A DNA stretch of 63,209 nucleotides, counting the filler, from Collodictyon triciliatum (lineage: Eukaryota), in assembly GCA_043381765.1 (NCBI GenBank). It is 7 parts of 7 records of this genome, joined end to end, with 100 filler letters (N's around TTAATTAATTAA, not from the genome) between each part and the next. Parts side by side here need not be neighbours in the genome. Positions count along the whole stretch, not along the records: positions 18,359 to 27,432 come from JBHJMP010003170.1; 6 more parts are not named here. One strand, 5' to 3'. A program made the position numbers and the translations under genes. Of this stretch, positions 9,081-62,867 are shown piece by piece. The notes beneath the pieces are model-generated. The model was not told where the DNA came from, made no database searches, and saw only the letters and a list, made by a program, of their open reading frames with translations. Within the stretch, counting starts at the first letter, position 1. The number at the start of each line of letters is the position of its first letter.

Positions 9081-9180
9081 NNNNNNNNNNNNNNNNNNNN
9101 NNNNNNNNNNNNNNNNNNNNNNNNTTAATTAATTAANNNNNNNNNNNNNNNNNNNNNNNNNNNNNNNNNNNNNNNNNNNN
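9081..9180. other. Artificial contig-joining spacer N44-TTAATTAATTAA-N44 (also 18259-18358, 27433-27532, 36596-36695, 45768-45867, 54933-55032)
   Basis: Identical 100-nt structure six times. The core gives stops in all six frames, and genes are truncated at the spacers. Confidence 0.97.
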
Positions 9181-16998: not shown

Positions 16999-18069
16999 TC
17001 AGTCATATAGCTGCAGGCTTCTGAGGGTGTCTGAAATACGAGAGCCATTCGAAAACTCGTTATTTCTCCAGCAAGGGAGTGCAGAAACTCCTCGTGGGAT
17101 TCTTTCTATGCTGATATTTTTCTCATAATCCTGAATGTGTAGTTGCTTGAGCTTTCTCATCATAGTGATGTGTGGAGGCAGCTCTATAATCTTTCCCATT
17201 TTCATCATTAGGTCTTGCAGTCATATATTATCCGCATTAATATATGGGGATTATCCAAAACATAATGAAAATGGAAAAGAAAAGAAGATGAGAATTCAGG
17301 GAAAGAAATTAATAATAAAAAAAAATCTCACTGGGTTACTAGTGACATCAAAGTGTTTCAGTTTTCTCATCCCAGATATTGTGGGAGGCAAGCTCGCTAT
17401 TTTATTTTCTGACAGATTCAGATGAGTAACGCGCGACAAAGAACATAGACATACTGGAAAGGCGTTGATTTGGTTACTGCAAAGAGATATGAACTTCAAG
17501 GTTGTCAACACCGACATCTCGTCGGGTAAAAAAGAGAGATGGTTGCAGGACAGGTTCATGTATGTGATAGTGGTCAATCCCGATGCCTTGGTCGAGAGGG
17601 TGGCAATCATGTTATTTGATGCATCTAAGTACTTGAGGCTAGGCAAGCCTAAGACTCCAGTTTGCAACATCGAGAGTTTGTTATTCGACACAGAAAAGCC
17701 CGTCAGTCTGCACAAACGGGACATCTCGTCGGGGAGCTCAGAGAGATTATTGAAAAAAAGGCCTAGCCACTCGAGTCCGTCCAACGCTAAAACCTCGTTT
17801 GGAAACAAAGAGAACTTGTTGTCGAATAGGTTCAAGAGAGTGAGACTAGTCAGAATAGAAATCTCAGTCGGCAACGAGTCCAGTTCGCCCGAACCAGCCG
17901 AAAGACTCATGAGCCTAGTCAACACAAGGACACTGCGCGGGATGAAGGAAAGGTTTTTGTTTGATATGTCAAGCTCTGTGCAGTTTTCCAGAGCACTGAA
18001 AAACCAGTCGGGCTTGTAAGTCGGCTGCAACTCACTTAACTCTGCAAAACTTGTGGCGCGGTCGGACAT
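16999..18069 (-). CDS. Leucine-rich repeat protein, family member LRR-1
   Basis: Exon 1 holds about nine 23-aa LRRs (LxxLxxLxLxxNxLxxLP) ending FDVTSNP|gt. Exon 2 is IIELPPHITMMRKLKQL...IERIPRGVSALPCW...LQLYD*. Degenerate family-like sequence (YTPEW) lies near 16790, so the 3' end is uncertain. Confidence 0.85.
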
Positions 18070-18174
18070 AGTCTTCCTCTGTCTCTGCAAAGAGTGGAGG
18101 AAAGAGAATATGGAACAGTCTGTTAACCTTCGACGAGTTCGCAAGACAGTTTTTGCTTTCTGGTTTTTGCCATT

Positions 18175-18239
<65 letters not shown>

Positions 18240-18736
18240 TTTTTTTTTTTTTTTTTTTNNNNNNNNNNNNNNNNNNNNNNNNNNNNNNNNNNNNNNNNNN
18301 NNTTAATTAATTAANNNNNNNNNNNNNNNNNNNNNNNNNNNNNNNNNNNNNNNNNNNNCCTCTTCTTTTAATCTTTCATATTTAAGTTTTTTTTATTTTT
18401 TGAACCATGCAGAAATATAGTTTCCAATCGTTAAAAATTGTAGAAAAAATGTCGTGAGAGGTACGATATTGCCAAGAAGCTCTACGAAAGAGCGAAGGCC
18501 CCGTTTCCGTTCCATGGTTGAAATTTGATTTATCTTTATCTCTTTTTGTGATATTTTTATTTGATACTATTTTAATATATCAACTTAACTAAATTTAAAT
18601 ATTGAAGCAGGTCTTGGTCTGGAAGAAAAAGGCTCTGTTGTGCTCATGCGTACTTGCATTCTTCTTGATAGGGTGATTAATAATAAATGAAATAATCATT
18701 AAAAAGGTATAAAATATATTCCGTTTGTGAAATATA

Positions 18737-21700
18737 ATGTCCTTTTCAAACCAGATGAAGCTTGCTCGTGAAGACCTGAAGGAGAGGCAATACAAGAAGT
18801 GGAATCCAGCTCCACAAAGATACGTGACACCAACACCGTTGCCACTCATTGTCTTTGACGAGCGTGTCATCCGTCTTTTCCTTTCCTCGACTTTCCGTGA
18901 CATGCAGCAAGAAAGAGACGAGTTCTTCAAGAACGGAGCCCCTGAGTAAGTTCAATCCATTTTTATAAATAAATTTCTGATGAGGAATGATAATTTGATG
19001 CTTTTATTTTACTAGAAGTGATATCTTTATGTCAGGTTGAAAAGGCTTGCGAAATCAAAGGGACTGGACCTTGTCTTTATCGACTTGCGCTGGGGACTGA
19101 CTTCTGTGGACAGTAGCGAGGGATGGGTAATCACACAATATTATTAACATTATTTTTGGAATTTTTTTAGAATATTAAGCATTTTATAAAATAATAAACT
19201 TCAATTTGCTCTTGTTGCTTTCAAAGGTTGTAATTCGCTGTCTGGACTCTATTGGAAAATGCCCATACTTTGTGTGCTCTCTCGGTGCGCGCTACGGTTG
19301 GATTCCTGACCAGAACAAAACGGAGCTGAACAAACAAGCCCTCCTTGAGGAGCTGCTGAAAACCAAGCCTGATGCCACCATGAAGGATGTCTCGGTGGAA
19401 TGGCGCAGTGAAACGAATAGTCGCTTCCCATTCATTGACGGAATGCCTGGGTTGAGTGTGACTGAGTACGAGGTGAAGCCAATCTTTACGTTATATTCTT
19501 TATCTTTTTATGAGTGATAATTGAAAAATAAATAAATTATTCTCTAAAATATATATATTCATGTTCAGATTCAGTACGCCTGTCTGATTGACAAACCAGC
19601 ATGCAGCCGCGCCTTCTTTTACCTCCGTGATGAGCATTATGCTGTCCAACATGCCAAGAATGAGGAAGAATGGTATCTCTTCCAAGCCGAAAGCAAAGAG
19701 GCGGTAAAAATTGATTTTAAGTATGATATTTTCGTTTTCAAGTTATTATGTTATGATTATTTAATGATTCGATTTTTTGACATATATTTCAATTTTATTT
19801 TTTTAGCGTAAGAGGCAGGAGGAGCTCAAAGGGAAAGTCAAGGCCAAGTTCGGGCATGTTGTTTACAAAGGAGCGAAGGAGTATTCGGACTTTGTGACCT
19901 ACCATCTCTCCTACGCCATTGAGCGCGACTTTGGGAATCAAAATGTATTTTTAATTTTTCTGGATTTATGGATATCAGTATTTATTGGTGAGGTATATAT
20001 TTCATTTATATTATGCTGACATAACCATAACCTAGGTGAGAGACCCTGAAGACCAAGCGCAGCATCAGTTCAAGATGCATCGACTGGCTGGGTTTGGTGG
20101 AAGAAAGGAGCTTCTCAAGGCAATCACGGAGCACGTAAGATGAAGATAAAGAGCAACTAATTAAAATGTCAACAATGTCCTTTGATTTTTTTCTTTTCTC
20201 ATCAATAAATCATTTCTATCAGGCCATGAATCAGCTGAACACCGATAAATCCAAAATCATCATTCTCGCTGCCGAGTCTGGGATTGGAAAGTCGTCGCTG
20301 ATGGCTGCTACAGCGAGATACCTCGAAGGGCTGAAGCATCCTGGGCTGCATGTCTTTTTCCATTTTGTCGGATGCACCAATCTCAGCAATTACGTGGAAA
20401 GGTTATTTCTATTCCTTTTTGTTTTTATAGATATAATAACATTGTTTTGGTTTTTTTAACATTTGTTTATTTTAGTGTTTCGATTCGTTTCTGGACTTTG
20501 GTCGCAAACTCTGCCAACTTTGCCGACCGAAAGAAGCAAGAAGCTGGTATTACAGTATTACATTGTATTTTTTTATCTTTTTAATTCAAATTTTGCATAA
20601 TTATTCATGTATTTTATCTTATTTTGCCACCAGAATACGAAAAAGAGGGACTCCAAGGGTTGCTGAAGATGATTCAGGAGAAAAACAAGTAATACTTCAA
20701 TTTTTTTGTTTATTTTAATGATTGTATCAGAATTGAAATACTTTGAATCGAATAAAAAATTGATATTAAATTATGTATATTTATAGGGACGAGAAGTTTG
20801 TCTTCCTCATCGATGCCATCAACCAAATCCACCCGTCGCAAGGAACGCCAGCTCCGCATCTGCTGACCTGGTTGCCAAAGGAAACACCAGCTAATGTTGC
20901 CATGGTTGTTTCGACCATTCATACCCATGAATCTTGCACGGTATTCAATATTTATTTATATTATGGGATATTCTTGTATTCTGCATAAAAATGATTTGAG
21001 TGGAACTTTACTTAATGTATCTGTCATAAGTCTGCCAAGCAAAGTGGACTGGAGCCAATTCCTGTCACAAAGTTAAACGAGGGCGAAATTAAGAATGGTG
21101 TTGAATCCTTCCTCATTCGCTATGACAAGACCCTGAACGAAAAGCAAATTGGAATGATTCTGGCTGACTTAAAAGATACCGGTGAGACATTGATTATAGG
21201 ATTATATATTTGATTAATGTTTTTTTAAGGAATGGTTAATTTATTCTTATCTGAATTTTTTTTATTCTAGGCCACCCGCTCTATCTCCGCATAATTCTTG
21301 ATGAGGTCAGGGTCTTTGGTGTCTATGAGAAGCTCGATGATGAACTGAATACGCTGCTTTCGACCAAAGGTGTCATTGAGCTTTACACTCTCATTATTCA
21401 GCGCTGGCAACTGAAGTTCGACAGGAAAGGTGAGTATTGGTTTCATATTTCACAAAAAAAAGTAAAGAATTATAATTGCCACTTTTGTTGATTACTTATC
21501 TTAACTGTACAGTCTCCTCCTCTGATGGAAAAGAGACAATAAAGGTCGAGTATGTCTCCCTCTCGATGAAGGTTCTCTTTGTTTCCCGCATTGGCCTGAG
21601 TGAAGTTGACCTGGACAAGTACATGAAAGATGCGATTGGCACAGGATTCGAGCTTGCTGAGTGGTTTGCTTACTCCTAAATTTTAATAGAATTAATAGGT

Positions 21701-24700
21701 TTACCTTTTTTCTTTTATTCTTTTATTTATCTAATCTTTTTGTTCATTCAAATAGGAAGTCCTTCTTCTTTACCCTCATCGAGTCGCTTTTCGTCCGCAA
21801 TGGAAGGTTAGTCTTATTTTTAAATCCTTTCGTTCGTTAATCGGTGCTTTTTGGGTATAATTTTATTTTGGTATAAAAACTAATATTGTTTATCATAGAT
21901 ACATGTACTTCCACCAGCTGCTGTTGGAGACCTCCGAAAAGGTCTACTTCTCCGAAGAGGAAGAGATGGAAAAAACGCACGAAAAATACGGAAAATGGCT
22001 GTTTGGCCAGTATTATGAGGCCGCTGACGCGGATGAGGAGCTTGCTGCTGAGATATGCTACCAGCTTCTGAAGGGCAGTTCGTTTGACTTGCTTGTTGAA
22101 TACATGAAGCAAAAACATGTAATTTTTTATTATATGATATGTTCAATTATTTTAGGTATAATAAAAAGATTTTCACTGTAAATTTTTAATATTTCATAGG
22201 TTATCAGTATCATGCTCGGTGGTCGCTATCGCTACGAGTTCTTTACATGCTGGAGAGCAATCAACGCAAGCGGAGCGGCAAACTACAAAGATGTTTATGG
22301 AAGCTTGGCTAAGGTTATTTTACTATTTATCTTTATTTTTTGAAGGTTACTACTTACACAATTTTAATATCAATCATGATTTATCTATTAATTATTTTTC
22401 AGTCTTTGGATAATGTGGGAGACCTGCTGGTTGGATTTTTCTTGGAGTCTTTTGAGAACTCGTTTTTGTTGTCTGTTCTGAATGTGCGTCTTGGAAAGCA
22501 TCAGACAGAAGGTATACAATTTAATATTATTTGATGATTAATGTATGTCATGAAGACGAATTTATATGTGGATACGTTCAATAATCTATCAATTTATAGA
22601 TGCAAAGTCTGCTGATTACCTGAATCTTGGTCGTGTCTACAAGAACCTTCAAAAGTATAAAAAATTATAAAAAAATCAATGATTATAAATAGGACATGAC
22701 ATGATGTTTATAATGCAAACTTTTCTAAAATAAAAATAAATTATACAGCTGGGCTGAGTCCATGGTCTACTACAAGAGATGCCTCGATTCAGTTGAGAAA
22801 AACGAAGATGATTCCCTGCGTATCGCCACCATTCACGAAGAAATGGGAATCATCTACCAGCAACAGGATAAGTAAGGCTCGCTTTCAACTGTAATATATT
22901 ATGAATAATGTTTCAAAAAGGAAGCATTCTAATTTGCTTATGAAACAGAATTGATGAAGCTCTTGATGAATACAAGAAATCACTGGACTTGAGAGTCAAA
23001 CAGCTGGGCGAGAACGACTTGCAAGTGGCCCTATCACATGACCGCTTCGGAGACATCCATGTGAAGCAGTCAAAGTAATGTTTGAATCACTTATATTCGC
23101 TAATATTCTGCTTTTATTTTTTCGTAAATATGTAAGTATGCTTTTAATTTTTTATGATAGGAATGAGCAAGCTCTAGCTGAATACAAAAAGGCCATGGAA
23201 ATTCGCCAAAAGAAAGTCGGAAACGAGCATCCTCTGGTCGCAACATCGTACCAGAACTATGGCCATGTCTCTCTGGCTGGGAAAAAGTAGCATATTCATT
23301 CATTTAAGACAGTTCTAAATTTTCTTATGATATTTTGGGATATTTTAATATGATTGAATCATCAAGGTATGAAGAGTCTGTTGAAAACTTCGAAAAGGCA
23401 AAATCAATCCTTGAAAAATCGCTGGGAGCCAAGCATGCATCTGTTGCCTCGACAATCCAGTATATTGCAAACGTTCATCTTGCCAGTGGAAAGTTCGGTT
23501 CTATAGATTTTAGATTATTTTCATAAAACAATAATTTTTCTTAAAATTGAATTTTTTCAAGATGAGTGTGGTTTTATATCTCACATTTGTATACTCTATT
23601 TATGGTTAAAATTTTACATCATATTATAATTCTAACTTATAAATATCAAATAAATATTGTCCTATATAGGAAAACTGAGGCCTTATCCTCATTAAAGCAA
23701 TCGCTGGATATTTTCATGCCTGCCCTGGGTGAAAATCATCCGAATGTTGTGGCCTGCTATGAAATGATTGGAGACATCAGCCATGATTTGAAGAAGTATC
23801 ATTTTATCAATTATGAATTACATTTATAATTGTGCCGAATAATATTTACTATATCTCAGATATAAGAATGCTTTGGAGGCTTATGCAAAGACACTGGATA
23901 TTCGCGTGAGAACATTGGGCGAAAAGCATGCGGATTGTGCTACCTCTCTGGAGAATGTTGGCCGAACAAACTTTGAGCTTAAAAGGTAACTTCTCTATTA
24001 TATTAGAAAATCGAATATTTTGATTAACACTTGTAAAAAAATATACATCGATAAATATTAACTGATATACATGTATCTAGTTCTGCTCAGTGTGTTGATT
24101 GCTTTCAGAAGGCAGCTGCTATCAGAAAGGAGACAAAGACTGCCATATCACTGAAAGACGGTTCACAATGTACAAGAATTGCGCAAATTATGGGAGACAA
24201 CAAAGAGCATGAAGCCGCCATTCAGCTTTACAAAACAGCTGCTTTTAGACATGGCGAAAAGTCATCCTATGAAAATTGGGACTGCTGGGTGGCTTGCGAG
24301 AATGTACACCAATACTGCAAACAGAATAAGCTACATGAAAGTGGCGCGGCATTCTCGGTTGAGATGAGAGACAAATTCGCTGATAAACTCGGATGGATTC
24401 ACCCCAGAACATTAAACTCATGCGAATACTTATCCGTCCATTCAAAAGAAATCGGAATCAAAAAAGAGCCTGTCGAGTTTACAAGAGTCAAGGAATTCAT
24501 CAGCGAAACTCTTGATGATGCAAAACTAGATGGGGAATGGAATCGTGAGCAAATCATTGCATCATTATTCAGAATTGTCTACATGTCAAAGACTGATGAG
24601 AGCAAATCAAAGGTTGCATCTGATGCCATCACAGTTTTGAATTTCATGAATATTTCGTTAGATGCTATGGATTTATCAAACATCAAAATTCCACATGCAG

Positions 24701-27093
24701 ATCTCAGTAACTCAATCCTTGATGGTGCAAACTTAACTAGTGCCAACTTGGATGGTGTGGACTTCACGAATTCGATGCTTGGTGATTGTGTTTTTGATCA
24801 TGCGAATATGAATAATGTGAAATTCGGAATTTCCCATCATAAATTGGAAGGTCATAGAAATGCTGTCATGAGTATTTGCAGTATTCAAGGACCAAATGGT
24901 GAAAACTGGTTGGCTTCTAGAAGTCGTGAAAAAACAATACGAATTTGGGATGTGGCCACAGGAAACCATATCAAAACATTAAAAGGTCACACAAGAGATG
25001 TCACTAGTGTTTGCAGTATTCAAGGACCGAATGGTGAAAATTGGCTGGCCTCTGGAAGTCGTGATAAAACAATACGTATTTGGGATATAGCCTCAGGAAA
25101 CCATATCAAAACACTAGAAGGTCATACAAGTTATGTCATGTGTGTTTGCAGCATTCCAGGACCGAATGGTGAACGCTGGTTAGCTTCTGGAAGTAATGAT
25201 AATACAATACGTATTTGGAATGTAGCCACAGGAAATCAAATCAAAACATTAGAAGGTCATACTGAGAGTGTCACTAGTGTTTGCAGCATTCAAGGTCCGA
25301 ATGGCGAAAAGTGGCTGGCTTCTGGAAGTGTTGATAATACAATACGTATTTGGGATGTAATCACAGGAAATCAAATCAAAACATTAGAAGGTCATACAAG
25401 GTGTGTCACTAGTGTTTGCAGTATTCAAGGACCGAATGGTGAAAAGTGGCTGGCTTCTGGAAGTTATGATAATACAATACGTATTTGGAATGTAGCCACA
25501 GGAAATCAAATCAAAACATTAGAAGGTCATGTAGAACGTGTCACCAGTGTTTGCAGTATTCAAGGACCGAATGGTGAAATATGGTTGGCTTCTGGAAGTA
25601 GCGATTATACAATACGTATTTGGGATGTAGCGACAGGAAATCAAATAAAAACATTAAAAGGTCATGCAGAAGCTGTCAATAGTGTTTGCAGTATTCAAGG
25701 ACCGAATGGTGAAAATTGGCTGGCTTCAGGGAGTGGTGATAATACAATACGTATTTGGGATATATTCACAGGAAACCATATCAAAATATTAGAAGGTCAT
25801 AAACGTTCTGTCACTAGTGTTTGCAGTTTTCAAGGACCGAATGGTGAAAAGTGGTTGGCTTCTGGAAGTCGTGATAAAACAATACGTGTTTGGGATGTAG
25901 TCAAAGGAAATCGTATCAAAATATTAAAAGGACATACAGAAGCTGTCACTAGTGTTTGCAGTATTCAAGGACCGAATGGTGAAAAGTGGCTGGCTTCTGG
26001 AAGTAGTGATTATACAATACGTATTTGGGATGCAGCCACAGCAAACCAAATCAAAACATTAGAAGGTCATACAAAATGGGTCACTAGTGTTTGTAGTATT
26101 CAAGGACCGAATGGTGAAAATTGGCTGGCTTCGGGAAGTGGTGATAAAACAATACGTATTTGGGATGTAGCAACAGGAAACCAAATTAAAATATTAAATG
26201 GTCATACAGATGAAGTAACTAGTGTTTGTAGTATTCAAGGACCGAATGGTGAAATATGGCTGGCTTTTGGAAGTGGTGATAAAACAATACGTATTTGGGA
26301 TGTAGCAACAGTAAGTCAAATCAAAACATTAGAAGGTCACACAAAATGGGTCACTAGTGTTTATACTATTCAAGGACCGAATGGTGAAATATGGCTGGCT
26401 TCTGGAAGTGGTGATAAAACAATACGTATTTGGGATTTGGCCACTGGAAACCAAAGACATGGCCTGCAAAAATCAGAAGTGACCTACACCCAAGGAAAAT
26501 ATCTAGTCAAGAAAGAAAAGCCAGACGAAGTCATCGCAGTATTCAACAGAACAAGTGATGCGATGGACATGATTGATACCAACAGAATCCAAGATGCAAA
26601 GACAGTCCAGATTATCGGCCTAAGAAAGCTGCAAGGTGGAAACATCCAAATCAGAAACGTCACGGGATTGAGTCGATTCAACAAATCTCTCCTTCTTTCA
26701 ATCGGAGCTGCTTCCTTTGATGCGGACTTTGCTGTCTATGGTGAACAGAGTAAGTTGACCAACTTCCAGGCTCAAATGATGGCTGAGTGCTATGAGAATG
26801 GATGGGGTGTTGGAAAGGACACCGAGAAAGCAGCTGAGTGGAGAATTATCGCTCCCATGATATCATCATTAGACTTTGATGGATTGAAACATCTTGCACA
26901 ACAAGGCTCAAAGGGTGCATTCAATTTTTTGAAAGAAATGGCTGAAATTAAGGAAGACATTCTGACCCGATTGGGAGACAAAATTGGTGAAAAACACAAA
27001 CATCCACAAGCTGTTTCTATTGTGGCTGAGTGCTATGAGAATGGGTGGGGTGTTGAGAAGGACACCGAGGAGGCTGCTGAGTGGAGACAGTAA
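18737..27093 (+). CDS. NLR-like STAND NTPase: DUF4062 - NACHT - TPR array - pentapeptide repeats - 12 WD40 repeats - 2 Sel1-like motifs
   Basis: DUF4062 motifs RLFLSSTFRDMQQERDEF, IDLRWG, LGARYGWIP, SVTEYE. Walker A AESGIGKSS (~20271), Walker B FVFLIDAINQI (~20800), HPLYLRII. 42-aa TPRs (LGENHPNVVACY type). The terminal exon 24081-27093 is in frame with the preceding phase-2 intron. Confidence 0.88.
24841..26451 (+). repeat. Tandem array of twelve 135-nt (45-aa) highly similar WD40 repeats
   Basis: Unit ~ QIKTLEGHxxxVTSVCSIQGPNGExWLASGSxDxTIRIWDVATGN. caaggaccgaatggtgaa-type anchors recur every 135 nt (e.g. 25021, 25156). Confidence 0.97.
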
Positions 27094-27824
27094 GACTCAG
27101 CTTAACAAGGTAAGTAGTGTTATGAATGAATATTAATATATGTTCGTTAACTCTATTAATCATTTTAGATGGAGAGATTCTCTGAGTTTTTTTCAAGCAG
27201 ACCTCCACTTTTTTCCCACAAGGACGCTCCATGAAAATAGAATAAGCCATAAAAAAATGAAAGCATAGCTGACCGACTCGTTGAATTCTTCTTTCCTTTT
27301 TCTTTTTTCTTTTTTCTTTTTTCTTTTTTCTTTTTTCTTTTTTCTTTTTTCTTTTCTTTTTTCTTTTTTCTTTTTTCTTTTTTCTTTTTTCTTTTTTCTT
27401 TTTTCTTTTTTCTTTTTTCTTTTTTCTTTTTTNNNNNNNNNNNNNNNNNNNNNNNNNNNNNNNNNNNNNNNNNNNNTTAATTAATTAANNNNNNNNNNNN
27501 NNNNNNNNNNNNNNNNNNNNNNNNNNNNNNNNGTGTCTGTGTCTGTGTCTGTGTCTGTGTCTGTGTCTGTGTCTGTGTCTGTGTCTGTGTCTGTGTCTGT
27601 GTCTGTGTCTTTCTCTTCCCATCTCCATTTTTCTTCTTCTTCTTTTTAATATCCCTTCTCTACGCAACTTCTACTGCAAAAAAAAAAAAAAACAATCTTT
27701 TTTATCTTTCTCTCCGATCCATTTCTATTAATCCATAATTGGTTTGTGCAGCTTGTTGGGTATGTCTCTTACTAAACTTATCTTCCGCCTTCCGCCTTCC
27801 CCGTCCCCTTCCTCTCTTGTATAG

Positions 27825-28606: not shown

Positions 28607-31326
28607 TTATTGTCTCATCTTTTTGTCATGCACCCCAAGTAACCTTTTTCTAATCAGACGCTTCATTTCATTCTTGAATTGAAGCAAGCGATTTTGATCT
28701 GGAGGCAGACTTTTGCGAGATGCATGTGATACCGCTTCATTCCATTCTGACAATAGCTCATCGTCACTCAGGGATAGCAAGGTGGTCTCTTTTCGACGTT
28801 CTGAGTACTCAGCAAAGGAACGATACGGATAATGGTAGATGTCCAGGACACCCGCGGTTTGGACCACTTCAGTGGGAGGAATACCATGTGGCTGTGATAT
28901 CAAATGCGCTTGATACTGTGACTTGCGGCGCAGGTCTGGTGGTGGGAAATTCATGACAGCCACCAACAACGGATTTGATAGGCCATCCTCTTGGAGTCCC
29001 ACCACAAAAAGGGGACGGAATACAGACCTGGCTTGTGATGGGATGAAAGAGGGAAGTGTCTTGGGTTGTGTGACATTCTGGCACCTCTCAAACGATAAAC
29101 CAATTCTTTGCAAGGCTTGGTCAACATTCTTGCTCTCAAGCCCTTTTTCAGAATCGGATAGTGCGTCTGGTTTTCCCTTTGAATCCTGAATGATGGCTTT
29201 TGCCTCTGCTGTTGCATCAACTAGGGACTGTAAATCACGGTCGCTAATATCCTGTTTGGAAGAGGGCCCAAAAGAAATACGTGGAACCATGAGGACTGGA
29301 ATCAAGTCGGAAACTTCATTCTTGTTCAAATGATCTTTTGCGTCGGCAAAATTGTCCTGCATATCGAGATTTGGTGCAGCATTAGGATTGCCTTCTCCTT
29401 GACGAGGCTTTTTGAGAAGTGTTTTACTATGGGCGAATCTGATTTGTAGTGCCCTCTTGACCGTATCAAAAGGCTTCCTTGGGACTATGAACTCGTCTAC
29501 TTGAAGATACGTCATCCATTGTGTAAGCGGACCGAACTTTCGCATAGCATCCGTCAGGGCTAATGCAGCAGCATGAGGGTAATGTTTGCTCCACCTGACC
29601 CTGGTCAATCCAGAAGGAAACTCCTTAAAAAGGGTGTCTAAAATGTGATCAGATGACGGAGCTGCGTCGTAGATAATGATGCGGTCGTATCCTTGGAGCA
29701 GATGATATTCTAACCATTCCCTCAGATGGAATATTAAGCGAGAGCGTGCACGAAGGCCTTTGGGTGATAAAGGGGCAATATACGTGACAAGAGTCATAAT
29801 AACAGGCTCGATGGACGGAACTTCCAATGTCCTCAACTGGGTCGGGGTAGTAAAGAACTTCAAGTCGTAAGAGAGTCTCAGGCGTAAATCTACATGAGAG
29901 TGTGATGACGGACGAACAGACTTGGGAACTTTACAGTAAGTGAAAGTAGGCCCTCCTGAGCGCGCCAGAGCAGCATCGATGGTCCCATCGGGATGCTCCC
30001 AGAAACAATACATCGAATCACATGACGAGGAAAGCGAAGAGTTTCGAAGGGGTAGGTAGGGCGCTATGACAAAGACCTCTGACGAGGGTTCCAGCTTGTT
30101 GGAGTCGGTCGCATATAGTGCTTGAATCTCAAATGGTCGCTTGGAATTGACTGAAAGATGAATTTGGGTGGCCATGTCTTCATGGTCATGAATAAAGAGC
30201 TGCACAGTCCATTGGATTCGATCGAGGGGTATGGTAGAATGGGGAGTGGGAGGCATACAAGCAGGGATTCCTACAGGGGGGCACACGGCGTGTTCAATGT
30301 CCTTACAAAATACATTAGATTTGTGCTTCTCGCCAGTGTTAGAACGATAGATGCACACAGCATTTGAATTGCATTTCATATCTTTGGGCAACTTGAATTC
30401 TGTTGAGCCCCATTCCGAGCATAAGCGTACACAGGTTTGGGACATATCTTCCAAGTATCCTTGGTGATGATTTTGCATGTCTGCATCGACCGTGCTTGAA
30501 TTCTGTACTTCCTGGTCCTCGAGATCGATGCGGTTGAACATAAATCGGCGCACACGAACCTCAAAAGGCAGGTGAAATGATGGGTTCCATCCACGATTGA
30601 CAACACCTCCTTCTTGGACTCCTGATAAAGGCAAAACAGAGTCGCCTGTGGGAGGGGGTAATCTACATGGCTGGCCCTGCGCGTTCTTGGGTGTTGTATC
30701 ATCAGCCCTTGTGTTCCTTCCCGCTTGGCCAAAGTTGAAGGTACTTCGGAGTACATAGATGAGATTCAGGCAGAGGATGACAACAAGACTTACACGGAGC
30801 AGATGACCAACCTTTAGGTATTTGTGAAAGGAAAATAAAATTAATATGTACAAATACAAACAAAGGAAATATAATATGTGTAAAAAAATAAAAAAAGTAA
30901 AAGAAAAAGTAAAAGAAATAGAAAAAGAAATAGAAAAAGAAATAGAAAAAGAAATAGAAAAAGAAATAGAAAAAGAAATAGAAAAAGAAATAGAAAAAGA
31001 AATAGAAAAAGAAATAGAAAAAGAAATAGAAAAAGAAAAAGAAATAGAAAAAGATAAAGAAAAAGATAAAGAAAATGGAGAAAAAGAAAATGGAGAAAAA
31101 GAAATAGAAAAAGAAATAGAAAAAGAAATAGAAAAAGAAATAGAAAAAGAAATAGAAAAAGAAATAGAAAAAGAAATAGAAAAAGAAATAGAAAAAGAAA
31201 TAGAAAAAGAAATATAAAAAGAAAAATATAAAAAGAGATATAAAAAGAAATAGAAAAACCTAGGTTTAGGGTGGAATGTGAAGAAAATAATGAGCTTCGA
31301 GGCTGATCTTTGCAGCCAGCCCCTCG

Positions 31327-31368
<42 letters not shown>

Positions 31369-31440
31369 TAAGTTTGAACTATATATGCGCGTCAATAACA
31401 ATACCGATAACCCTCGCGGAGACCGTGGCTGACTCTGCAT
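28607..31440 (-). CDS. Type II membrane glycosyltransferase, GT92/DUF23-like GT-A fold; 2 exons (31440-31405, 30811-28607)
   Basis: MQSQPRSPRGLS|VGHLLRVSLVVILCLNLIYVL gives a short cytosolic tail plus TM helix. Catalytic-domain motifs LREWLEYHLLQGYDRIIIYD, WMTYLQVDEFIVP and IYHYPYRSFAEY. Confidence 0.8.
30914..31215. repeat. (GAAATAGAAAAA)n 12-mer minisatellite in the glycosyltransferase intron
   Basis: Seen directly. The EKEI-repeat ORF is a by-product. Confidence 0.93.
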
Positions 31441-36520: not shown

Positions 36521-37000
36521 TGTATGTATGTATGTATGTATGTATGTATGTATGTATGTATGTATGTATGTATGTATGTATGTATGTATGTATGTNNNNN
36601 NNNNNNNNNNNNNNNNNNNNNNNNNNNNNNNNNNNNNNNTTAATTAATTAANNNNNNNNNNNNNNNNNNNNNNNNNNNNNNNNNNNNNNNNNNNNAAGAA
36701 AAAAGGAAAAAGGAAAAAAAGGAAAAAGGAAAAAAAGGAAAAAGGAAAAAAAGGAAAAAGGAAAAAAAGGAAAAAGGAAAAAAGGAAAAAGGAAAAAGGA
36801 AAAAGGAAAAAAGAAAAAGGAAAAAAGGAAAAAAGGAAAAAAGGAAAAAAGGAAAAAAGGAAAAAAGGAAAAAAGGAAAAAAGGAAAAAAGGAAAAAAGG
36901 AAAAAAGAAAAAGGAAAGACGAAAAGAGGAAAAAGGAAAGACGAAAAGAGGAAAAAGGAAAGACGAAAAGAGGAAAAAGATGAAAAAGAGGAAAAAGGAA
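36491..37000. repeat. (TATG)n to 36595 and (GGAAAAAA)n-type polypurine tract 36696-37000, on either side of a spacer; (CATA)n at 56949-57048
   Basis: Seen directly. Confidence 0.92.
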
Positions 37001-43519: not shown

Positions 43520-45296
43520 TTAACCGTCGTCAACATAATATACATCCCTCTGAATCTCGCACTTCCTCGTGTCCAGTTGTTTCAAGTTGACTTTTACAGT
43601 CATCCTCACTTCCAGCACCCTCCGTCACCCCATAAAATGCTGGTAGCTGAATAATCTACAACATGAAATACAAATGACTTGGAGTAAAATGTGGATGTGG
43701 AACGCAAAAGGAATTGATGAATCAAGTGTAGTTGAGAAATGATGCAAACAATCTATCCAATCGATCGATTTTATTCGGCCCGTCAATAGCTATCTCACCT
43801 GGTTATTTGTCACATCTAGCTGTTGGAGATAGCAAAGTCGGTTGATTGAATCGGGTATATTTGTGAGCTGGGGCATATGAAGAAGGGCGTTCAGCGATTT
43901 TCGTAAATAATATATACTGTCTTGTGTATATTAATAAGTCTCATCCTCCATGTAAAGTATGCTACCTTGTTATTTGCGATGTCCAACCTAACAATCGAAG
44001 AAATATGACAAATTGACTCTGGCAGCTCTACAAACTATCACGTATCGAATCTGTTAGTGATTTTGCCCAACTGAATGATTCTGCATTTAACTCATTCATT
44101 ACGTGGTTTCTTCTGAGACATAAATACGTCAGGTTTTGCAAAAGGGAGATGCTCTCTGGGAGTTTTTTTAAGTTCATGCCGTACAGACTTAGCGTAATAA
44201 ATCTTATATGCAACTCAGTTGGTGTCCATTCTGGCGTTGTTATCAATTCAATCTGTTTTTATTCTTTTGATGAGTTGCTTCCTTTTCTTTAAAAAAAAAT
44301 ATATGCTAGATTACAGTTACCAACCGTATCACACAACTCGACAGCGCGTATTATTATCTTCTTATTCAGCCCTTTCTTCCAGCAGGGGAGATTCGAGATT
44401 CCGCGAGGTACTCTTTTGATAGTTTTATCCAAATAGCCTTCTATTAAGAGCTCCTGCAAACTCTTCAGCGTTGTGATTTGTGATGGAAGCTCTTCCATCT
44501 ACATGAAATTCATTAGTCTCATACTGTTTTAACATGCCTGATGAAAGAGAAAACTCACCGGATTATTGCCCACGTTGAGATGTGTGAGACAAGTTAAGCG
44601 TGATATTTCCGGAGGCAGATATGTCAGCAAATTTTTGTAAATACTAAGGTATTTTAGACAAACCAAACAGGATATCACTGAAGGAATTGAGGTCAAATTA
44701 TTGGAGCCAACATCCATCGATACAAGAGCCTTCAAGGTTGATATCTCTGTGGGAATGGAGGACAGCTTGTTGTCATACATATGAAGATATGCAAGGCTTT
44801 CTAATTTTGATATGTCTGGTGAAAGCGCTGATAATTGATTGAAACTGATATCAAGATAGGTGACTGCCTTCATGTATGACGTTTCTGGCGGGAGATATGT
44901 GAGCTTATTATCGAAAATACTTAGATACTTGAGCCTAACCAACCCGGGTATCTTTGGTAGGATTGAGGATAGACAGTTTGAACTAACGTCCAAATAAGTG
45001 AGACTTGTCAAGCATGATAACTCCAGCGGAAGGGATGTTATTCGGTTAATACTTACATCAAAATATATGAGACTTGTCAAGCATGATACCTCTGGTGGTA
45101 GGGATGATAGCTGGTTTTCCGAAAGATCCAACTCGACCAAACGATGGAGCAGGAAGATCCCCCGTGGAACAGAAACCACACGGCTTGACTGGAGCCTAAG
45201 CTTTGTGCAGTTTTCGAGTCTTCCAAACAGCCCACCAGGCGAATACTCTGCTTTGAGCGTTTTCAGCTCTCCGAGAAGCGCAAGTCCACCACTCAT
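43520..45296 (-). CDS. Leucine-rich repeat protein LRR-2, paralog of LRR-1
   Basis: The N-terminus LGELKTLKAEYSPGGLFGRLENCTKL aligns with LRR-1 FAELSELQPTYKPDWFFSALENCTEL. About ten LRRs end VGNNP|gt, followed by IKRVPRGISNLPCW, further LRR exons and an acidic tail. Confidence 0.85.
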
Positions 45297-45724: not shown

Positions 45725-46210
45725 GTAAGCACAAACTGCCCCAGAACCACGAAGCCCACAACCAAGCNNNNNNNNNNNNNNNNNNNNNNNNNNNNNNNNN
45801 NNNNNNNNNNNTTAATTAATTAANNNNNNNNNNNNNNNNNNNNNNNNNNNNNNNNNNNNNNNNNNNNCACTCCCCTTTCTCTTTCTCTTCGCTCTGTGTT
45901 TGGCAAGACGGAGTCGCTCGCGCAGTTCCTGGTTGCTCTGATCCTTGTGGGTTTCCTTTGTGCTGCGGCTGCGGATATGGTAAAGCGGAAAGGTCGCAGA
46001 GGGAAAAAAAGCGTCACGAAGAGAGTAACCCTGTCTCCTTTTCTTTTTATCCTTTTTCCTTTTCTTTTTCTTTTTCTTTTTCTTTTTCTTTTTCTTTTTC
46101 TTTTTCTTTTTCTTTTTCTTTTTCTTTTTCTTTTTCTTTTTCTTTTTCTTTTTCTTTTTCTCTGTTTTCCTCTTCGCTTGCTCACTAAAACATAACTCCA
46201 GACGAAGAAG

Positions 46211-50211: not shown

Positions 50212-51049
50212 NNNNNNNNNNNNNNNNNNNNNNNNNNNNNNNNNNNNNNNNNNNNNNNNNNNNNNNNNNNNNNNNNNNNNNNNNNNNNNNNNNNNNNNNN
50301 NNNNNNNNNNNNNNNNNNNNNNNNNNNNNNNNNNNNNNNNNNNNNNNNNNNNNNNNNNNNNNNNNNNNNNNNNNNNNNNNNNNNNNNNNNNNNNNNNNNN
50401 NNNNNNNNNNNNNNNNNNNNNNNNNNNNNNNNNNNNNNNNNNNNNNNNNNNNNNNNNNNNNNNNNNNNNNNNNNNNNNNNNNNNNNNNNNNNNNNNNNNN
50501 NNNNNNNNNNNNNNNNNNNNNNNNNNNNNNNNNNNNNNNNNNNNNNNNNNNNNNNNNNNNNNNNNNNNNNNNNNNNNNNNNNNNNNNNNNNNNNNNNNNN
50601 NNNNNNNNNNNNNNNNNNNNNNNNNNNNNNNNNNNNNNNNNNNNNNNNNNNNNNNNNNNNNNNNNNNNNNNNNNNNNNNNNNNNNNNNNNNNNNNNNNNN
50701 NNNNNNNNNNNNNNNNNNNNNNNNNNNNNNNNNNNNNNNNNNNNNNNNNNNNNNNNNNNNNNNNNNNNNNNNNNNNNNNNNNNNNNNNNNNNNNNNNNNN
50801 NNNNNNNNNNNNNNNNNNNNNNNNNNNNNNNNNNNNNNNNNNNNNNNNNNNNNNNNNNNNNNNNNNNNNNNNNNNNNNNNNNNNNNNNNNNNNNNNNNNN
50901 NNNNNNNNNNNNNNNNNNNNNNNNNNNNNNNNNNNNNNNNNNNNNNNNNNNNNNNNNNNNNNNNNNNNNNNNNNNNNNNNNNNNNNNNNNNNNNNNNNNN
51001 NNNNNNNNNNNNNNNNNNNNNNNNNNNNNNNNNNNNNNNNNNNNNNNNG
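50212..51049. other. Intra-scaffold N gap (second one at 58223-58959)
   Basis: Long N runs without the spacer core. Confidence 0.97.
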
Positions 51050-53220: not shown

Positions 53221-55233
53221 TGCGTAAGGAGTTTGAGCAGCAAGGTTGGCGTTTTTGAGGGTCTGTAGGAATACGAGTTCGGCACCTCTTTCTAACGCCC
53301 TACGGAATAGGAGGCAGCCCCACTCGCCCAACCGTCTCTGCCTCTGTCTCTCTATACATCTTTCTCTATCCATTATCTATGTTTTTTTTTTCGCTCTAAA
53401 GAATTGTGGCGCATATGGCGCTTGAAATACTCTGGTGTTTAATGTGAATGAAGAACCAAGTTAAAACAGCAGGGGAAGTTTGCCTGTCGCACAGCACGAA
53501 AAAATCACGAAACAAAACCTTTTTTATATTGCGTGTCTGGTTAGTATATAATTACGTGAGTTATTTTGTCTAATTTTTATTCTCGAGCTGTTTCACTCCC
53601 GTCTCATAACGTCAAAGTTACAGTGCTGATTTACAGTTTATTGATGTCGCGTTTTCATCGGACACAATCTAAGCCAAGGCGGGACGTAGGCTCCCTATGC
53701 CAATACCTTCAATAGGCACATATTATTTAAGATTTCCTTTTCAGTACCTCAGATTTAAAGGAAATGTTCAGCCAACATGAAAAGTACCTCGTTCAATCAT
53801 TAAAATGAATAATATATATGCCTCTCACAAATATTCGGAAATAACTCCATCAAGTGAGGCAAGAAAGGTGAGTTCATCATTTATTTAGATAATCAAGACT
53901 GAGACGAACAGATAACCAGTTAAAGGGTTCCAGAATATGGGATTTCAGTTGTTTTATGTAACAAGTGCGTAATTCATGAAGCATCATATCAACCAATCAG
54001 ATGGTAAGAGAGCTACAAGTAATGCTTTTACCTGACGTCGAAGATATTTATAAATAAATCTTTTCCATTCACGAAGATAATTCAGTCTTCAAATCCATTT
54101 AAAAGAAAGGAAAACATATGCCACTAGAGTACCTTTTAGTGAATTTGAATAGCTCGGTCCAATTAGTTTTTTTTAAAACATAATGCAACCAAAAGTGATG
54201 ACCTGTTTCCAGGAAAATAGCTCGGTGACATAGAAGACTGGTGATGCATGTATCACACAATCTCAGTACCGCACGGTGAATGCAAATTCGATTTGTGACA
54301 CAAAAAAGATTAGCCTTTATGAAGACCTGCATTCATGAAATGATACTGAGAAATTATGGGACAGAATGATATTACGGCAGTGAGAATAATTGAATGAACC
54401 TTTGTTTAAGCGGTGGGCTGTGTACGTGACATTTAAGTTATGGAAAAAAAGTGGAACGAATCTGGCATGTGTGTCCCTAATAGGATAAGGCTATATATGG
54501 AATTTATTGACAAAATAATATTGCAGGATGTATATATTGTATTTTGTTTACTTGAATATGTAATTTAGTGTGAAGTAATACATTTTAATCAAATAAGAAA
54601 AACATGTGCCGAACTTACGAGGTGTTTGTTTCTTTTTCCAATTTTTGCGGGATAATCAGGAACAGCAAACAAGACTAAGCACTTTGGCCACACGACGGCC
54701 GATCGAGAGTGATATTCAACTCGATGCGTTGATCAAGATCTTTGTGCTTTCCGATCACTTACCCGTTCGTACTGACAAGAAGCTCCGCTTGAACACTGCC
54801 CTCTCACAAATGACCACGGTAAGGATCGACTTTGCTCCTTCATACCTTCCAGTTTTCCTTGCTGATCGAATTTTACTTTCGCACAATAAAAGAGGAAAAA
54901 GAGGAATAACAAAACCAAAAAAAAAACCAAAANNNNNNNNNNNNNNNNNNNNNNNNNNNNNNNNNNNNNNNNNNNNTTAATTAATTAANNNNNNNNNNNN
55001 NNNNNNNNNNNNNNNNNNNNNNNNNNNNNNNNCCACAAGTCAGAATCAAGAATATGATGAAAAGAAAGAAAACATTCAAAGACAATATACTGGATATGGC
55101 CAAGACAAAGAACTGGTAGGGGAATCGCAAGAACCAAGGCATTGTGTAAACCAAAAGGATAGAAAAAATTTCATTTTATTTTTAGTTTGAATTATCCAGC
55201 CAATAGTAGGAACCAAATTCAAAGTCAAGAATA

Positions 55234-57932: not shown

Positions 57933-59351
57933 GACAGGCTCGTGATTTATCTGTCAATATCGAATCGTTCTTTGAAGCATGGTGGTGGAGTGGGTGTGAG
58001 ACTCGGTTTTTGTTATAGTTGCACTCAAAAGGGTTTCAACAAACCTCGCATGAGTCAACACTATTTTCTCTATTTTTCATATGTACTTACTTTTTTTTGT
58101 CTTCTGTCTTTTCTTTTTCTTTTTGTTTTTTGTTTTTTGTTTTTTGTTTTTGTTTTTGTTTTTGTTTTTGTTTTTGTTTTTGTTTTTGTTTTTGTTTTTG
58201 TTTTTGTTTTTGTTTTTGTTTTNNNNNNNNNNNNNNNNNNNNNNNNNNNNNNNNNNNNNNNNNNNNNNNNNNNNNNNNNNNNNNNNNNNNNNNNNNNNNN
58301 NNNNNNNNNNNNNNNNNNNNNNNNNNNNNNNNNNNNNNNNNNNNNNNNNNNNNNNNNNNNNNNNNNNNNNNNNNNNNNNNNNNNNNNNNNNNNNNNNNNN
58401 NNNNNNNNNNNNNNNNNNNNNNNNNNNNNNNNNNNNNNNNNNNNNNNNNNNNNNNNNNNNNNNNNNNNNNNNNNNNNNNNNNNNNNNNNNNNNNNNNNNN
58501 NNNNNNNNNNNNNNNNNNNNNNNNNNNNNNNNNNNNNNNNNNNNNNNNNNNNNNNNNNNNNNNNNNNNNNNNNNNNNNNNNNNNNNNNNNNNNNNNNNNN
58601 NNNNNNNNNNNNNNNNNNNNNNNNNNNNNNNNNNNNNNNNNNNNNNNNNNNNNNNNNNNNNNNNNNNNNNNNNNNNNNNNNNNNNNNNNNNNNNNNNNNN
58701 NNNNNNNNNNNNNNNNNNNNNNNNNNNNNNNNNNNNNNNNNNNNNNNNNNNNNNNNNNNNNNNNNNNNNNNNNNNNNNNNNNNNNNNNNNNNNNNNNNNN
58801 NNNNNNNNNNNNNNNNNNNNNNNNNNNNNNNNNNNNNNNNNNNNNNNNNNNNNNNNNNNNNNNNNNNNNNNNNNNNNNNNNNNNNNNNNNNNNNNNNNNN
58901 NNNNNNNNNNNNNNNNNNNNNNNNNNNNNNNNNNNNNNNNNNNNNNNNNNNNNNNNNNNTTTTTTTTTTTTTGCCTGGTATTAGCGAAACCAAAATTAAA
59001 TCACCCGTGATATGAGAACACCGCACGCGTGATGACATCGGTACGCCCACCAACACGAAGAAATTATGGCCCGTTTGTTTCGTCCTTTATCTCATAGTTA
59101 TGAGATTGGCATCCTCCAATAAAGAAAAAAAAAACAAGAAAAAAATTGGGGGAGGGGGCAAAGAAAGTGAATGTGTACAGTAACCGTGTTATCTTACATC
59201 TCATTATCTTTCTCATTTGGCGCTGTTCTCACGACGAAAAGAAAAACTCGTAGTTCTGCTTTTATTGAAATCATAGCAGATGTTGTATTGATAGCGTCAT
59301 CTTGTGGAGTTGGAAAGAAAGAGAAGGATATATATTTATATATAGATAGGT

Positions 59352-62471
<3,120 letters not shown>

Positions 62472-62867
62472 CGGCTCGGGCAAATGGCGACTGGGCTGCG
62501 GCTGTGGAGATTCCAGTCAGGTACCTCGGGTCTTTTGTCGAGTTTCATTTTGAGTGTGTGTTTTGTGTGTGTCCTTTTTTTTATGTCTTTTTTGTGTCTT
62601 TTTTTATGTCTTTTTTTTATGTCTTTTTTTTATGTCTTTTTTATGTGATCTGATCGTCTGAAGTCTTCGCGGAAGGAAATGCGGAATAGGTCTCAAAAAA
62701 CCGTATGTGACAAAATTTGAAAAATGAATAATGTTTATATTATAATGCTGATGCAGTACTAATGCAAATATAATGATAATTTATTGTAATATGAGTCTAA
62801 AAGGTCGTTATAATATAATATCCACATATGTATGTTTAAGCCAAAATTGGAATGGAAAAGCTGTCCG

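Follow-up and report, generated by a model that had tools for sequence, protein, structure and literature searches.

The stretch of DNA considered here (the window) comprises 63,209 nucleotides (nt) of the Collodictyon triciliatum assembly GCA_043381765.1, joined from seven separate contigs, and the subject of this analysis is a gene on the + strand of one of them (JBHJMP010003170.1, positions 18359-27432 of the window). The gene model contains 25 exons between 18737 and 27093, which together form a single frame of 6153 nt that encodes 2050 residues and ends with the TAA stop codon at 27091-27093. In order, the encoded parts are a DUF4062 domain, a NACHT domain, tetratricopeptide repeat (TPR) units, a pentapeptide-repeat region, 12 WD40 units and two Sel1 motifs. 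All 24 introns are of the GT..AG type, most of them 74-103 nt long (range 64-177 nt), and upstream of 24055 there is no long open frame but a regular series of short open segments. A single spliceable frame through all of these parts had been proposed in the original prediction, made from the sequence alone, and the 25-exon model bears this out.

DUF4062 has been renamed TeTIR or NIR in three bioRxiv preprints from 2026 (10.64898/2026.05.01.722283, 10.64898/2026.09.21.753143 and 10.64898/2026.09.04.749371, hereafter the TeTIR/NIR preprints), whose available text describes it as a TIR-like NADase (an NAD+-hydrolysing enzyme) that precedes NACHT in TEP1, NWD1, NWD2, TTC41 and NPHP3. The locus had been put forward as an undescribed system, a claim that does not survive these preprints, in which DUF4062-NACHT proteins already appear, as far as the available text goes, as TIR-like NADases of the STAND class (ATPases of signal transduction that have numerous domains). 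The chassis is known; the new feature is that both TPR and WD40 arrays are present on it. No serial arrangement of TPR, pentapeptide, WD40 and Sel1 was found in the literature text available, and the preprint supplements may list it.

Gene model, splice junctions and gene boundaries

Splicing was assessed with contigs from four public sequencing runs aligned to 18400-27400, two of which are metatranscriptomes and two of which are guessed to be RNA and hold spliced sequence. These contigs are 90-99% alike to the window and none is identical, so that, judged by this similarity, they represent close relatives or paralogs and not provably the window copy itself; in a comparison of 10 sequencing runs by sampled words, the best share was 0.10 and none reached half. 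Fifteen joints were listed and 60 further ones were present, and the counts given here refer to the 15. Twelve coincide with model introns (those after 18945, 19472, 19944, 20134, 20546, 20688, 20940, 22118, 22313, 22511, 22654 and 22871), two define additional 5' exons and one is mismatched, while exon skipping is seen in none. The mismatched joint, 21656->21774 (CT..AC, 117 nt skipped, runs X2 and X3), is at odds with the model intron 21664-21755; a diverged paralog, or a shifted alignment where exons 13 and 14 meet, is the probable cause.

Independent support for the exon series comes from P0012, a transcriptome protein of Diphylleia rotans, which aligns to model residues 3-837 in one high-scoring segment pair (HSP) of 841 columns at 56% identity; therefore no exon is missing or out of frame in the aligned part of the model. 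Reading the exon 20476-20546 in frame 1 was rejected, as it breaks the phase at both adjoining junctions and disagrees with P0012.

The junction on which the unity of the gene depends is 23985->24081, between the last TPR exon and the long final exon. Phase 2 is kept on both sides of each of the six one-unit TPR exons up to 23985 and is shared by the acceptor at 24081; with 2 nt left by the donor and 1 added by the acceptor, the junction is phase-compatible. An alternative acceptor AG at 24107-24108 was dropped on reading of the sequence, since it would require phase 0. In each of runs X2 and X3, a contig joins 23985->24094 with 13 diverged letters in between, exactly the length of 24081-24093; the predicted splice is thus present in close relatives. 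At the protein level, P0013 of D. rotans, a single open reading frame (ORF) of 2619 amino acids (aa), is 52% identical to the model over one HSP of 1823 columns (model residues 20-1838), which spans DUF4062, NACHT, the TPRs, the linker and the pentapeptide region and reaches into most of the WD40 array, and another HSP reaches the Sel1 tail. The partial protein P0023 likewise has TPR_12 followed by WD40.

Together, the RNA junction, the single HSP with P0013 and the open frame uphold the prediction of one gene with TPR and WD40 arrays on a DUF4062-NACHT chassis. That two genes lie here instead, a DUF4062-NACHT-TPR gene as far as about 23985 and a pentapeptide-WD40-Sel1 gene from ATG 24190 onwards, which only a fortuitous open frame or a contig chimera makes look fused, is extremely improbable: 24190 is indeed the first ATG in the long open frame 24055-27093, and the junction-spanning contigs are only 90-99% alike with none from the exact source organism, but the joint recurs in two runs, donor and acceptor phases agree, a TPR-like pattern and helices persist beyond 24081, no stop intervenes between the parts, and their order recurs in P0013 and P0023, each a single ORF.

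The model's start requires revision. ATG 18737, proposed as the beginning of the gene, falls inside an intron (18673..18754, +, GTGATT...AACCAG), as indicated by the RNA joints 18515->18610 and 18668->18753, the latter with 2 diverged letters and found in all four runs, together with homology. Two upstream coding exons on the + strand precede it, 18444..18516 (acceptor TTGTAG, donor GTTGAA; joint 18515->18610 in X2, X5 and X9) and 18611..18672 (acceptor GAAGCAG, donor GTGATT; flanked by both joints), and their translation aligns without gaps with residues 302-433 of P0013 and 384-515 of P0012. The exon 18444..18516 corresponds to the end of the N-terminal region in which the Diphylleia relatives have a calponin-homology (CH) domain (PF00307, with matches to the actin-binding domains of plectin and alpha-actinin). 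An RNA loose end before 18443 indicates that transcripts extend further upstream; its 30-nt consensus has 0 matches in the whole window, and the upstream exon therefore lies outside the contig. Consistent with this, a tblastn search of the window with P0012 returned no N-terminal CH exons. The gene is truncated at its 5' end, the contig starting at 18359.

At the 3' end, an intron in the untranslated region (27110..27167, +, GTAAGT...TTTTAG) is marked by loose ends at 27167 and 26844 reading ...GCTTAACA(AG)ATGGA. Transcripts of the relatives are polyadenylated near 27262, with a poly(A) loose end after 27245. A (CTTTTTT)n microsatellite at 27289-27432 occupies the end of the contig, 3' of the poly(A) site, and probably explains why the assembly stops there.

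TIR-like head, ATPase core and repeat arrays

The DUF4062 (TeTIR/NIR) TIR-like domain lies at 18755..19944 (+), in exons 18755-18945, 19036-19126, 19227-19472, 19569-19703 and 19807-19944, and is identified by Pfam pieces, motifs, a profile of its relatives and RNA joints. Pfam was scored exon by exon, with cut-offs of 24.7 bits for DUF4062 and 20.2 bits for Pentapeptide; the first exon matches positions 1-18 of the DUF4062 profile (18.0 bits) and the third positions 46-72 (24.1 bits), collinear matches that each fall below 24.7. The head contains the motif FLSSTFRD, a DLRWG loop at 19082-19096 (model residue 86) and SVTEYEI (residue 177), the two Glu codons of S-V-T-E-Y-E being 19464-19466 and 19470-19472 (+). 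A profile of 27 long relatives (alignment A1) matches the structure of the TEP1 TeTIR domain (11gz_A) with an E value of 2.2e-56, aligning SVTEMEV of TEP1 to the family consensus SVTElEI, and the second Glu of S-x-T-E-x-E is invariant across the alignment. The NADase activity of TEP1 is reported to require E1008, a Glu that NPHP3 lacks (TeTIR/NIR preprints, available text); from the chain numbering we infer that one Glu of S-V-T-E-Y-E corresponds to E1008. With the putative catalytic Glu and the RWG loop retained, the head looks competent and is a predicted NADase.

Immediately downstream, the NACHT P-loop NTPase core occupies 20036..21181 (+), in exons 20036-20134, 20223-20401, 20476-20546, 20634-20688, 20787-20940 and 21031-21181, with Walker A (AAESGIGKS) at 20268-20294 and Walker B (FVFLID) at 20797-20814, both on the + strand. 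It is supported by sub-threshold exon matches, identity to P0012 and RNA joints at five introns. NACHT-type Pfam families (NPHP3_N, AAA_16 and NACHT) match exon 7 (20.1 and 15.7 bits) and NACHT matches exon 10 (12.4 bits), all singly below cut-off. Assignment to the DUF4062-NACHT proteins is made because of the identity to P0012, which carries PF13271, PF05729 and PF20703, and to P0013, which carries PF13271 and PF05729, and because the 27-relative profile matches the TEP1 head. A DUF4062-type TIR-like domain directly upstream of NACHT, which defines the TeTIR/NIR-NACHT family, is thus found here.

The NACHT core is followed by a helical and winged-helix region with a GHPLYLR motif at 21271..22511 (+; exons 21271-21429, 21513-21663, 21756-21806, 21899-22118, 22200-22313 and 22403-22511), which is collinear with P0012 and P0013 and has RNA support in the joints 22118->22200, 22311->22401 and 22509->22598 and in the two pieces of contig record 25.

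The TPR array (22600..23985, +) begins with a half unit at 22600-22654 and continues with six one-unit exons on the same strand, 22749-22871, 22949-23074, 23161-23286, 23367-23492, 23670-23795 and 23860-23985. Each encodes one 42-residue unit, five are exactly 126 nt long and all six match TPR_12. Among themselves these exons are only 25% identical in aa and 46% in nt, and by this measure they are old and diverged. Modular exons had been suggested as one route of diversification, and this divergence, together with the lack of any exon skip among the listed joints, speaks against it.

The final exon opens with a linker (24081..24669, +) of about nine helices, in which a Pfam search of the 196 residues from 24081 found no family above cut-off. 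Its AlphaFold2 model has a mean pLDDT (predicted local distance difference test) of 78.9 and shows nine helices (H2-188) and then a strand every five residues. The best folds retrieved with this model by Foldseek were kinesin-light-chain TPR domains, weakly matched (E 1.3e-3, TM 0.32-0.36), with none at E <= 0.001, and on the strength of the model the linker is read as a degenerate continuation of the TPR solenoid, capped by the pentapeptide beta-helix. Word-based searches with the linker retrieved only pentapeptide proteins among longer proteins, missing even P0013 and so giving no sign of absence, and, for linker residues 1-200, no matches among proteins of near length, which is likewise no sign of absence. 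The pentapeptide-repeat beta-helix itself (24670..24840, +) scores 48.7 bits, well above its cut-off, and is conserved in P0013. About 450 residues of TPR-like solenoid and pentapeptide helix precede the WD40 units.

The WD40 array consists of 12 tandem units of 135 nt (45 aa) at 24841..26460 (+), defined by Tandem Repeats Finder and 12 Pfam WD40 stretches. Tandem Repeats Finder delimits it as 24836-26455, with 12.0 copies of 135 nt, 85% matches and 0% indels, and the units are internally 84% identical in nt and 76% in aa, in agreement with the homogenised array originally proposed. Internal identity is lower in the WD40 repeats of the relatives, at 49% in P0013 and 47% in P0023. Variation within the window units is concentrated at positions 6-8 (after G-H), 22, 29, 38 and 39, and to a lesser extent at 31 (three residues), with positions 29 and 31 flanking a conserved Asp.

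The C-terminal tail (26461..27093, +, up to the stop codon) carries two Sel1-like motifs (42.2 bits in two stretches) and aligns with the C-terminus of P0013. Transcripts of the relatives jump from about 26844 to the sequence directly 3' of the stop (loose ends CAAAAAGCCGCAGCTTAACAAGATGGA). From this comparison, and from the single Sel1-like motif of P0013, the window copy seems to have a duplicated Sel1-containing segment (26844-27109) that its relatives are without.

Relatives and family placement

A HMMER search with 814 residues of P0012 retrieved 9629 proteins at E <= 0.001, 1525 of them at E <= 1e-30, and 150 of the 9629 were available for study here. Origins were looked up for P0012, P0011 and 28 of the best-scoring representatives: of the 28, 16, the 14 best among them, are transcripts of D. 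rotans, which with P0012 makes 17 proteins from 16 different Trinity genes, and the remainder come from Cyanophora, Parvularia, a crinoid and metagenome records. These 17 D. rotans proteins among the best matches make the flagellated-protist host assumed in the original prediction plausible, and a diphylleid relative the probable source.

In a quick IQ-TREE phylogeny of 41 rows, the window protein forms a four-row clade with P0012, P0013 and P0014 (SH-aLRT, the Shimodaira-Hasegawa-like approximate likelihood ratio test, 99), nested in a clade of 14 rows, all the other 13 of which are from D. rotans (support 100), and a FastTree analysis of 149 rows is concordant. The 41-row tree includes no named TEP1 or NWD sequence, and the placement of P0024 in it is unsure, being on a long branch. 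This position sets the gene apart from a single-copy NPHP3 or TEP1 ortholog, as had been anticipated.

The combination of arrays is rare among the relatives examined. Among the 27 long relatives, DUF4062 is present in 27/27, TPR_12 in 26/27 and NACHT in 24/27, and WD40 is absent from the families carried by at least three of the 27. With a repeat profile run over 160 proteins, WD40 was found only in P0013/P0163, P0023 and P0119, the last having no TPR by the same profile. Among the relatives examined, these profiles confine the TPR and WD40 combination to a diphylleid subclade, and the dual-array architecture is, on the same sequence comparisons, a conserved diphylleid subfamily. A chimeric origin, part of the original proposal, is not what the data indicate, the entire architecture being collinear with P0013 at 52% identity. 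P0013 and P0023, themselves unnamed transcriptome ORFs, share with the window protein the order DUF4062, NACHT, TPR, linker, pentapeptide, WD40 and Sel1, with CH at their N-terminus; they differ in detail, P0013 having 19 WD40 stretches (16 full-length) that are 49% alike, as against 12 units 76% alike, and one Sel1-like motif as against two. The NPHP3-specific family PF25022 occurs in the separate D. rotans protein P0024 and not in P0013, and the window protein's own N-terminus is missing.

Other C-terminal arrangements exist among the relatives. In P0015 (D. rotans, 2314 aa), the stretch after DUF4062, NPHP3_N and TPR_12, some 1200 residues (~1100-2314), matches no Pfam family at E <= 1e-4, and 4/27 of the DUF4062-NACHT-TPR relatives in A1 carry an F-box-associated (FBA, PF04300) domain as another C-terminal add-on. 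A search of the ESM Atlas with P0023 gave only low-scoring cyanobacterial clusters with WD40 and pentapeptide repeats (0.79 and 0.75). No mention of Diphylleia or Collodictyon NLR-like proteins (resembling nucleotide-binding, leucine-rich repeat receptors) was found in the literature text available, and the preprint supplements may list them. One TeTIR/NIR preprint contains a EukProt survey in whose available text NLR-like proteins of this kind are recorded from across the eukaryotes; the survey probably took in D. rotans proteins as well.

A tblastn search with the model found 0 paralogs in the remainder of the window, a result of slight meaning as the window is made of separate contigs. These are pieces of about 9.07 kb each, joined by six identical 100-nt spacers of the form N44-TTAATTAATTAA-N44 (9081-9180, 18259-18358, 27433-27532, 36596-36695, 45768-45867 and 54933-55032), and genes on either side of a spacer are therefore not to be read as genomic neighbours. 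Two long N runs within contigs, 50212-51048 (837 nt) and 58223-58959 (737 nt), are scaffold gaps, unlike the 100-nt spacers. Elsewhere, the other contigs contain long open frames with LRR_8 repeats (on two contigs), NHL repeats, a RING finger and a GT92-like glycosyltransferase region; the domain-bearing frames lie at 17299-18090, 44532-45296, 59355-60554, 61689-62516 and 28610-31378, all on the (-) strand.

Proposed mechanism and comparison with known systems

With the structure of the gene, the order of its domains, the conserved motifs, the placement in the family and the pattern of repeat variation as described, the locus more probably than not encodes a STAND/NLR-like switch of the TeTIR-NACHT family, working in the manner of APAF-1 and TEP1 and using its WD40 array as a variable recognition face. 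The protein would consist of an N-terminal region (CH in the Diphylleia relatives), a TIR-like NADase-type head, a NACHT ATPase, a helical/winged-helix region, a TPR solenoid of six clear and about four degenerate units, a pentapeptide beta-helix, twelve WD40 blades and a tail with two Sel1 motifs. In the resting state the C-terminal repeats may keep NACHT off; binding of a ligand to the repeats would free NACHT, which would then bind nucleotide and oligomerise, and oligomerisation would gather the heads and so turn on NAD+ hydrolysis. The fast-evolving recognition surface would be expected in the WD40 propellers, which are homogenised and variable on their surface, and the diverged TPR solenoid would more likely serve as a conserved arm with a regulatory or adaptor role. 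This mechanism is proposed because of the analogy with APAF-1, TEP1 and the bacterial NIR-Avs proteins, and it is by such analogy that NADase activity, oligomerisation, ligand sensing and an immune or cell-death role would be expected; ligand-released oligomerisation is itself proposed by analogy for the TeTIR family in the available text of the TeTIR/NIR preprints.

The pattern of variation in the WD40 array is in keeping with this reading. In the available text of the study of Podospora HNWD repeats (PMC1805685), two pairs of selected codons, each flanking a conserved one, are located on the interaction face, and the window array likewise has two pairs of variable codons, each around a conserved residue. 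At WD40 positions 8, 10, 29 and 31, nonsynonymous divergence (pN) is 0.453 and synonymous divergence (pS) 0.251, as compared with 0.104 and 0.233 at the remaining positions. The pN of the four positions was reached by 17/20000 random four-position sets, a figure that overstates significance, the positions having been picked after the variability table and by analogy with HNWD.

Several further points weigh against the switch reading. A comparison among the repeats of a single gene does not separate selection from conversion. The RNA contigs demonstrate splicing in close relatives or paralogs, and the single-exon Pfam scores for DUF4062 and NACHT are below the curated cut-offs. An intact Glu is no guarantee of activity: of the human members assayed in vitro, only TEP1 was clearly active, NWD1, NWD2 and NPHP3 being inactive and the isolated NWD2 head showing low activity (TeTIR/NIR preprints, available text). 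The whole architecture, linker included, is 52% identical between two organisms, unlike a fast-turnover receptor outside its repeats, and among the named relatives those nearest to it are TPR proteins resembling NPHP3.

These last observations equally suit a non-immune scaffold of the NPHP3 type, an unlikely though serious alternative in which a CH-anchored STAND protein of the cilium or cytoskeleton binds fixed partners through its arrays and uses the head as an interaction module. The PF00307 domain of the relatives, with its resemblance to the plectin and alpha-actinin actin-binding domains, suits a scaffold of the cilium or cytoskeleton no less than a receptor; the nearest relatives outside Diphylleia have TPRs only, two being named 'nephrocystin-3' and 'TPR repeat protein'; matches to NPHP3_N and TPR_NPHP3 are present; the architecture is kept between two organisms; the likely host is a flagellate; and the lack of NADase activity reported in vitro for human NPHP3, NWD1 and NWD2 would accord with a structural role. 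A scaffold accounts less readily for the retention of the RWG loop and of the invariant Glu, reported to be absent from NPHP3 in the available preprint text, for the location of NPHP3-specific PF25022 on the separate protein P0024, for a family that in D. rotans has grown to no fewer than 16 Trinity genes, and for a homogenised WD40 array that varies at the sites on which selection acts in fungal NLRs. That the gene, as one paralog in a large family, is decaying or non-functional, looking intact yet not being expressed, is very improbable: the RNA contigs are not identical to the window, with only 80/546 (X2) and 71/446 (X3) at least 99% alike, but a frame of 2050 codons remains open across 24 canonical introns, the catalytic and P-loop motifs are intact and, at WD40 positions other than the variable ones, pN is smaller than pS.

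Within the switch reading, a more elaborate and rather doubtful version is a diphylleid two-tier immune receptor, in which a CH domain would anchor a TeTIR NADase-NACHT module to actin, the TPRs would gate the ATPase, and a conversion-prone pair of WD40 propellers behind the pentapeptide spacer would diversify recognition. If true, this would represent an independent invention of the receptor diversification by high internal conservation known from fungi, here coupled to NAD+ depletion. Diphylleid flagellates are a deep eukaryotic branch, and we know of no trigger for any eukaryotic TIR-like NADase-NACHT member. TIR-like NADase heads on NACHT proteins were first recognised in 2026, and a chassis bearing both a TPR solenoid and a WD40 array shows how STAND sensors can be constructed and could reveal which of the two controls the ATPase and which one detects the signal. 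The occurrence of a homogenised (76%) and a diverged (49%) array within one clade also offers a test of homogenisation against receptor diversification outside fungi.

Compared with known systems, the window protein is closest to TEP1, NWD1, NWD2, TTC41 and NPHP3, in all of which a TIR-like head lies directly before NACHT, a helical domain comes next and repeats form the C-terminus, and it has the RWG loop and the S-x-T-E-x-E glutamates of the TeTIR/NIR-NACHT family. The repeats of that family are said to be "either WD40 or TPR" in the available text of the TeTIR/NIR preprints; the window protein, in contrast, has both in series, its 42-residue TPR_12 units being as in the NPHP3/TTC41 branch and its WD40 units as in the TEP1/NWD branch. 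It also differs from these proteins by the pentapeptide beta-helix between the arrays and the Sel1 motifs at the end. Unlike in the WD40-only TEP1/NWD1 branch, the WD40 array does not directly follow the helical domain; unlike TEP1, the relatives have a CH domain at the N-terminus and not TROVE/VWA; and unlike NPHP3, the window protein retains the Glu and has WD40 repeats.

The fungal NLRs HET-E, HET-D and NWD of Podospora share with it the combination of NACHT and a homogenised WD40 array (PMC1805685, PMC4986451 and PMC13449251, available text), and its internal identity of 76% exceeds the 0.70 criterion given in one of these sources (PMC13449251) but not the 85% criterion given in another (PMC4986451). 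The fungal proteins differ in their N-terminal effectors, HET and others in place of TeTIR, and are described in the text available with one repeat type each, as against two array types here; a paper on Sordariales NLRs (PMC12258605) contains, in its available part, no statement found on mixed repeat types. At the most general level, the order of effector, STAND ATPase and repeat sensor follows the same logic as the APAF-1 apoptosome and the bacterial NIR-Avs2 protein PsAvs2, from which the window protein is distinguished by its NACHT and TeTIR head, where APAF-1 has NB-ARC and a CARD head, and by its two arrays, where PsAvs2, a bacterial STAND protein, has TPRs only.

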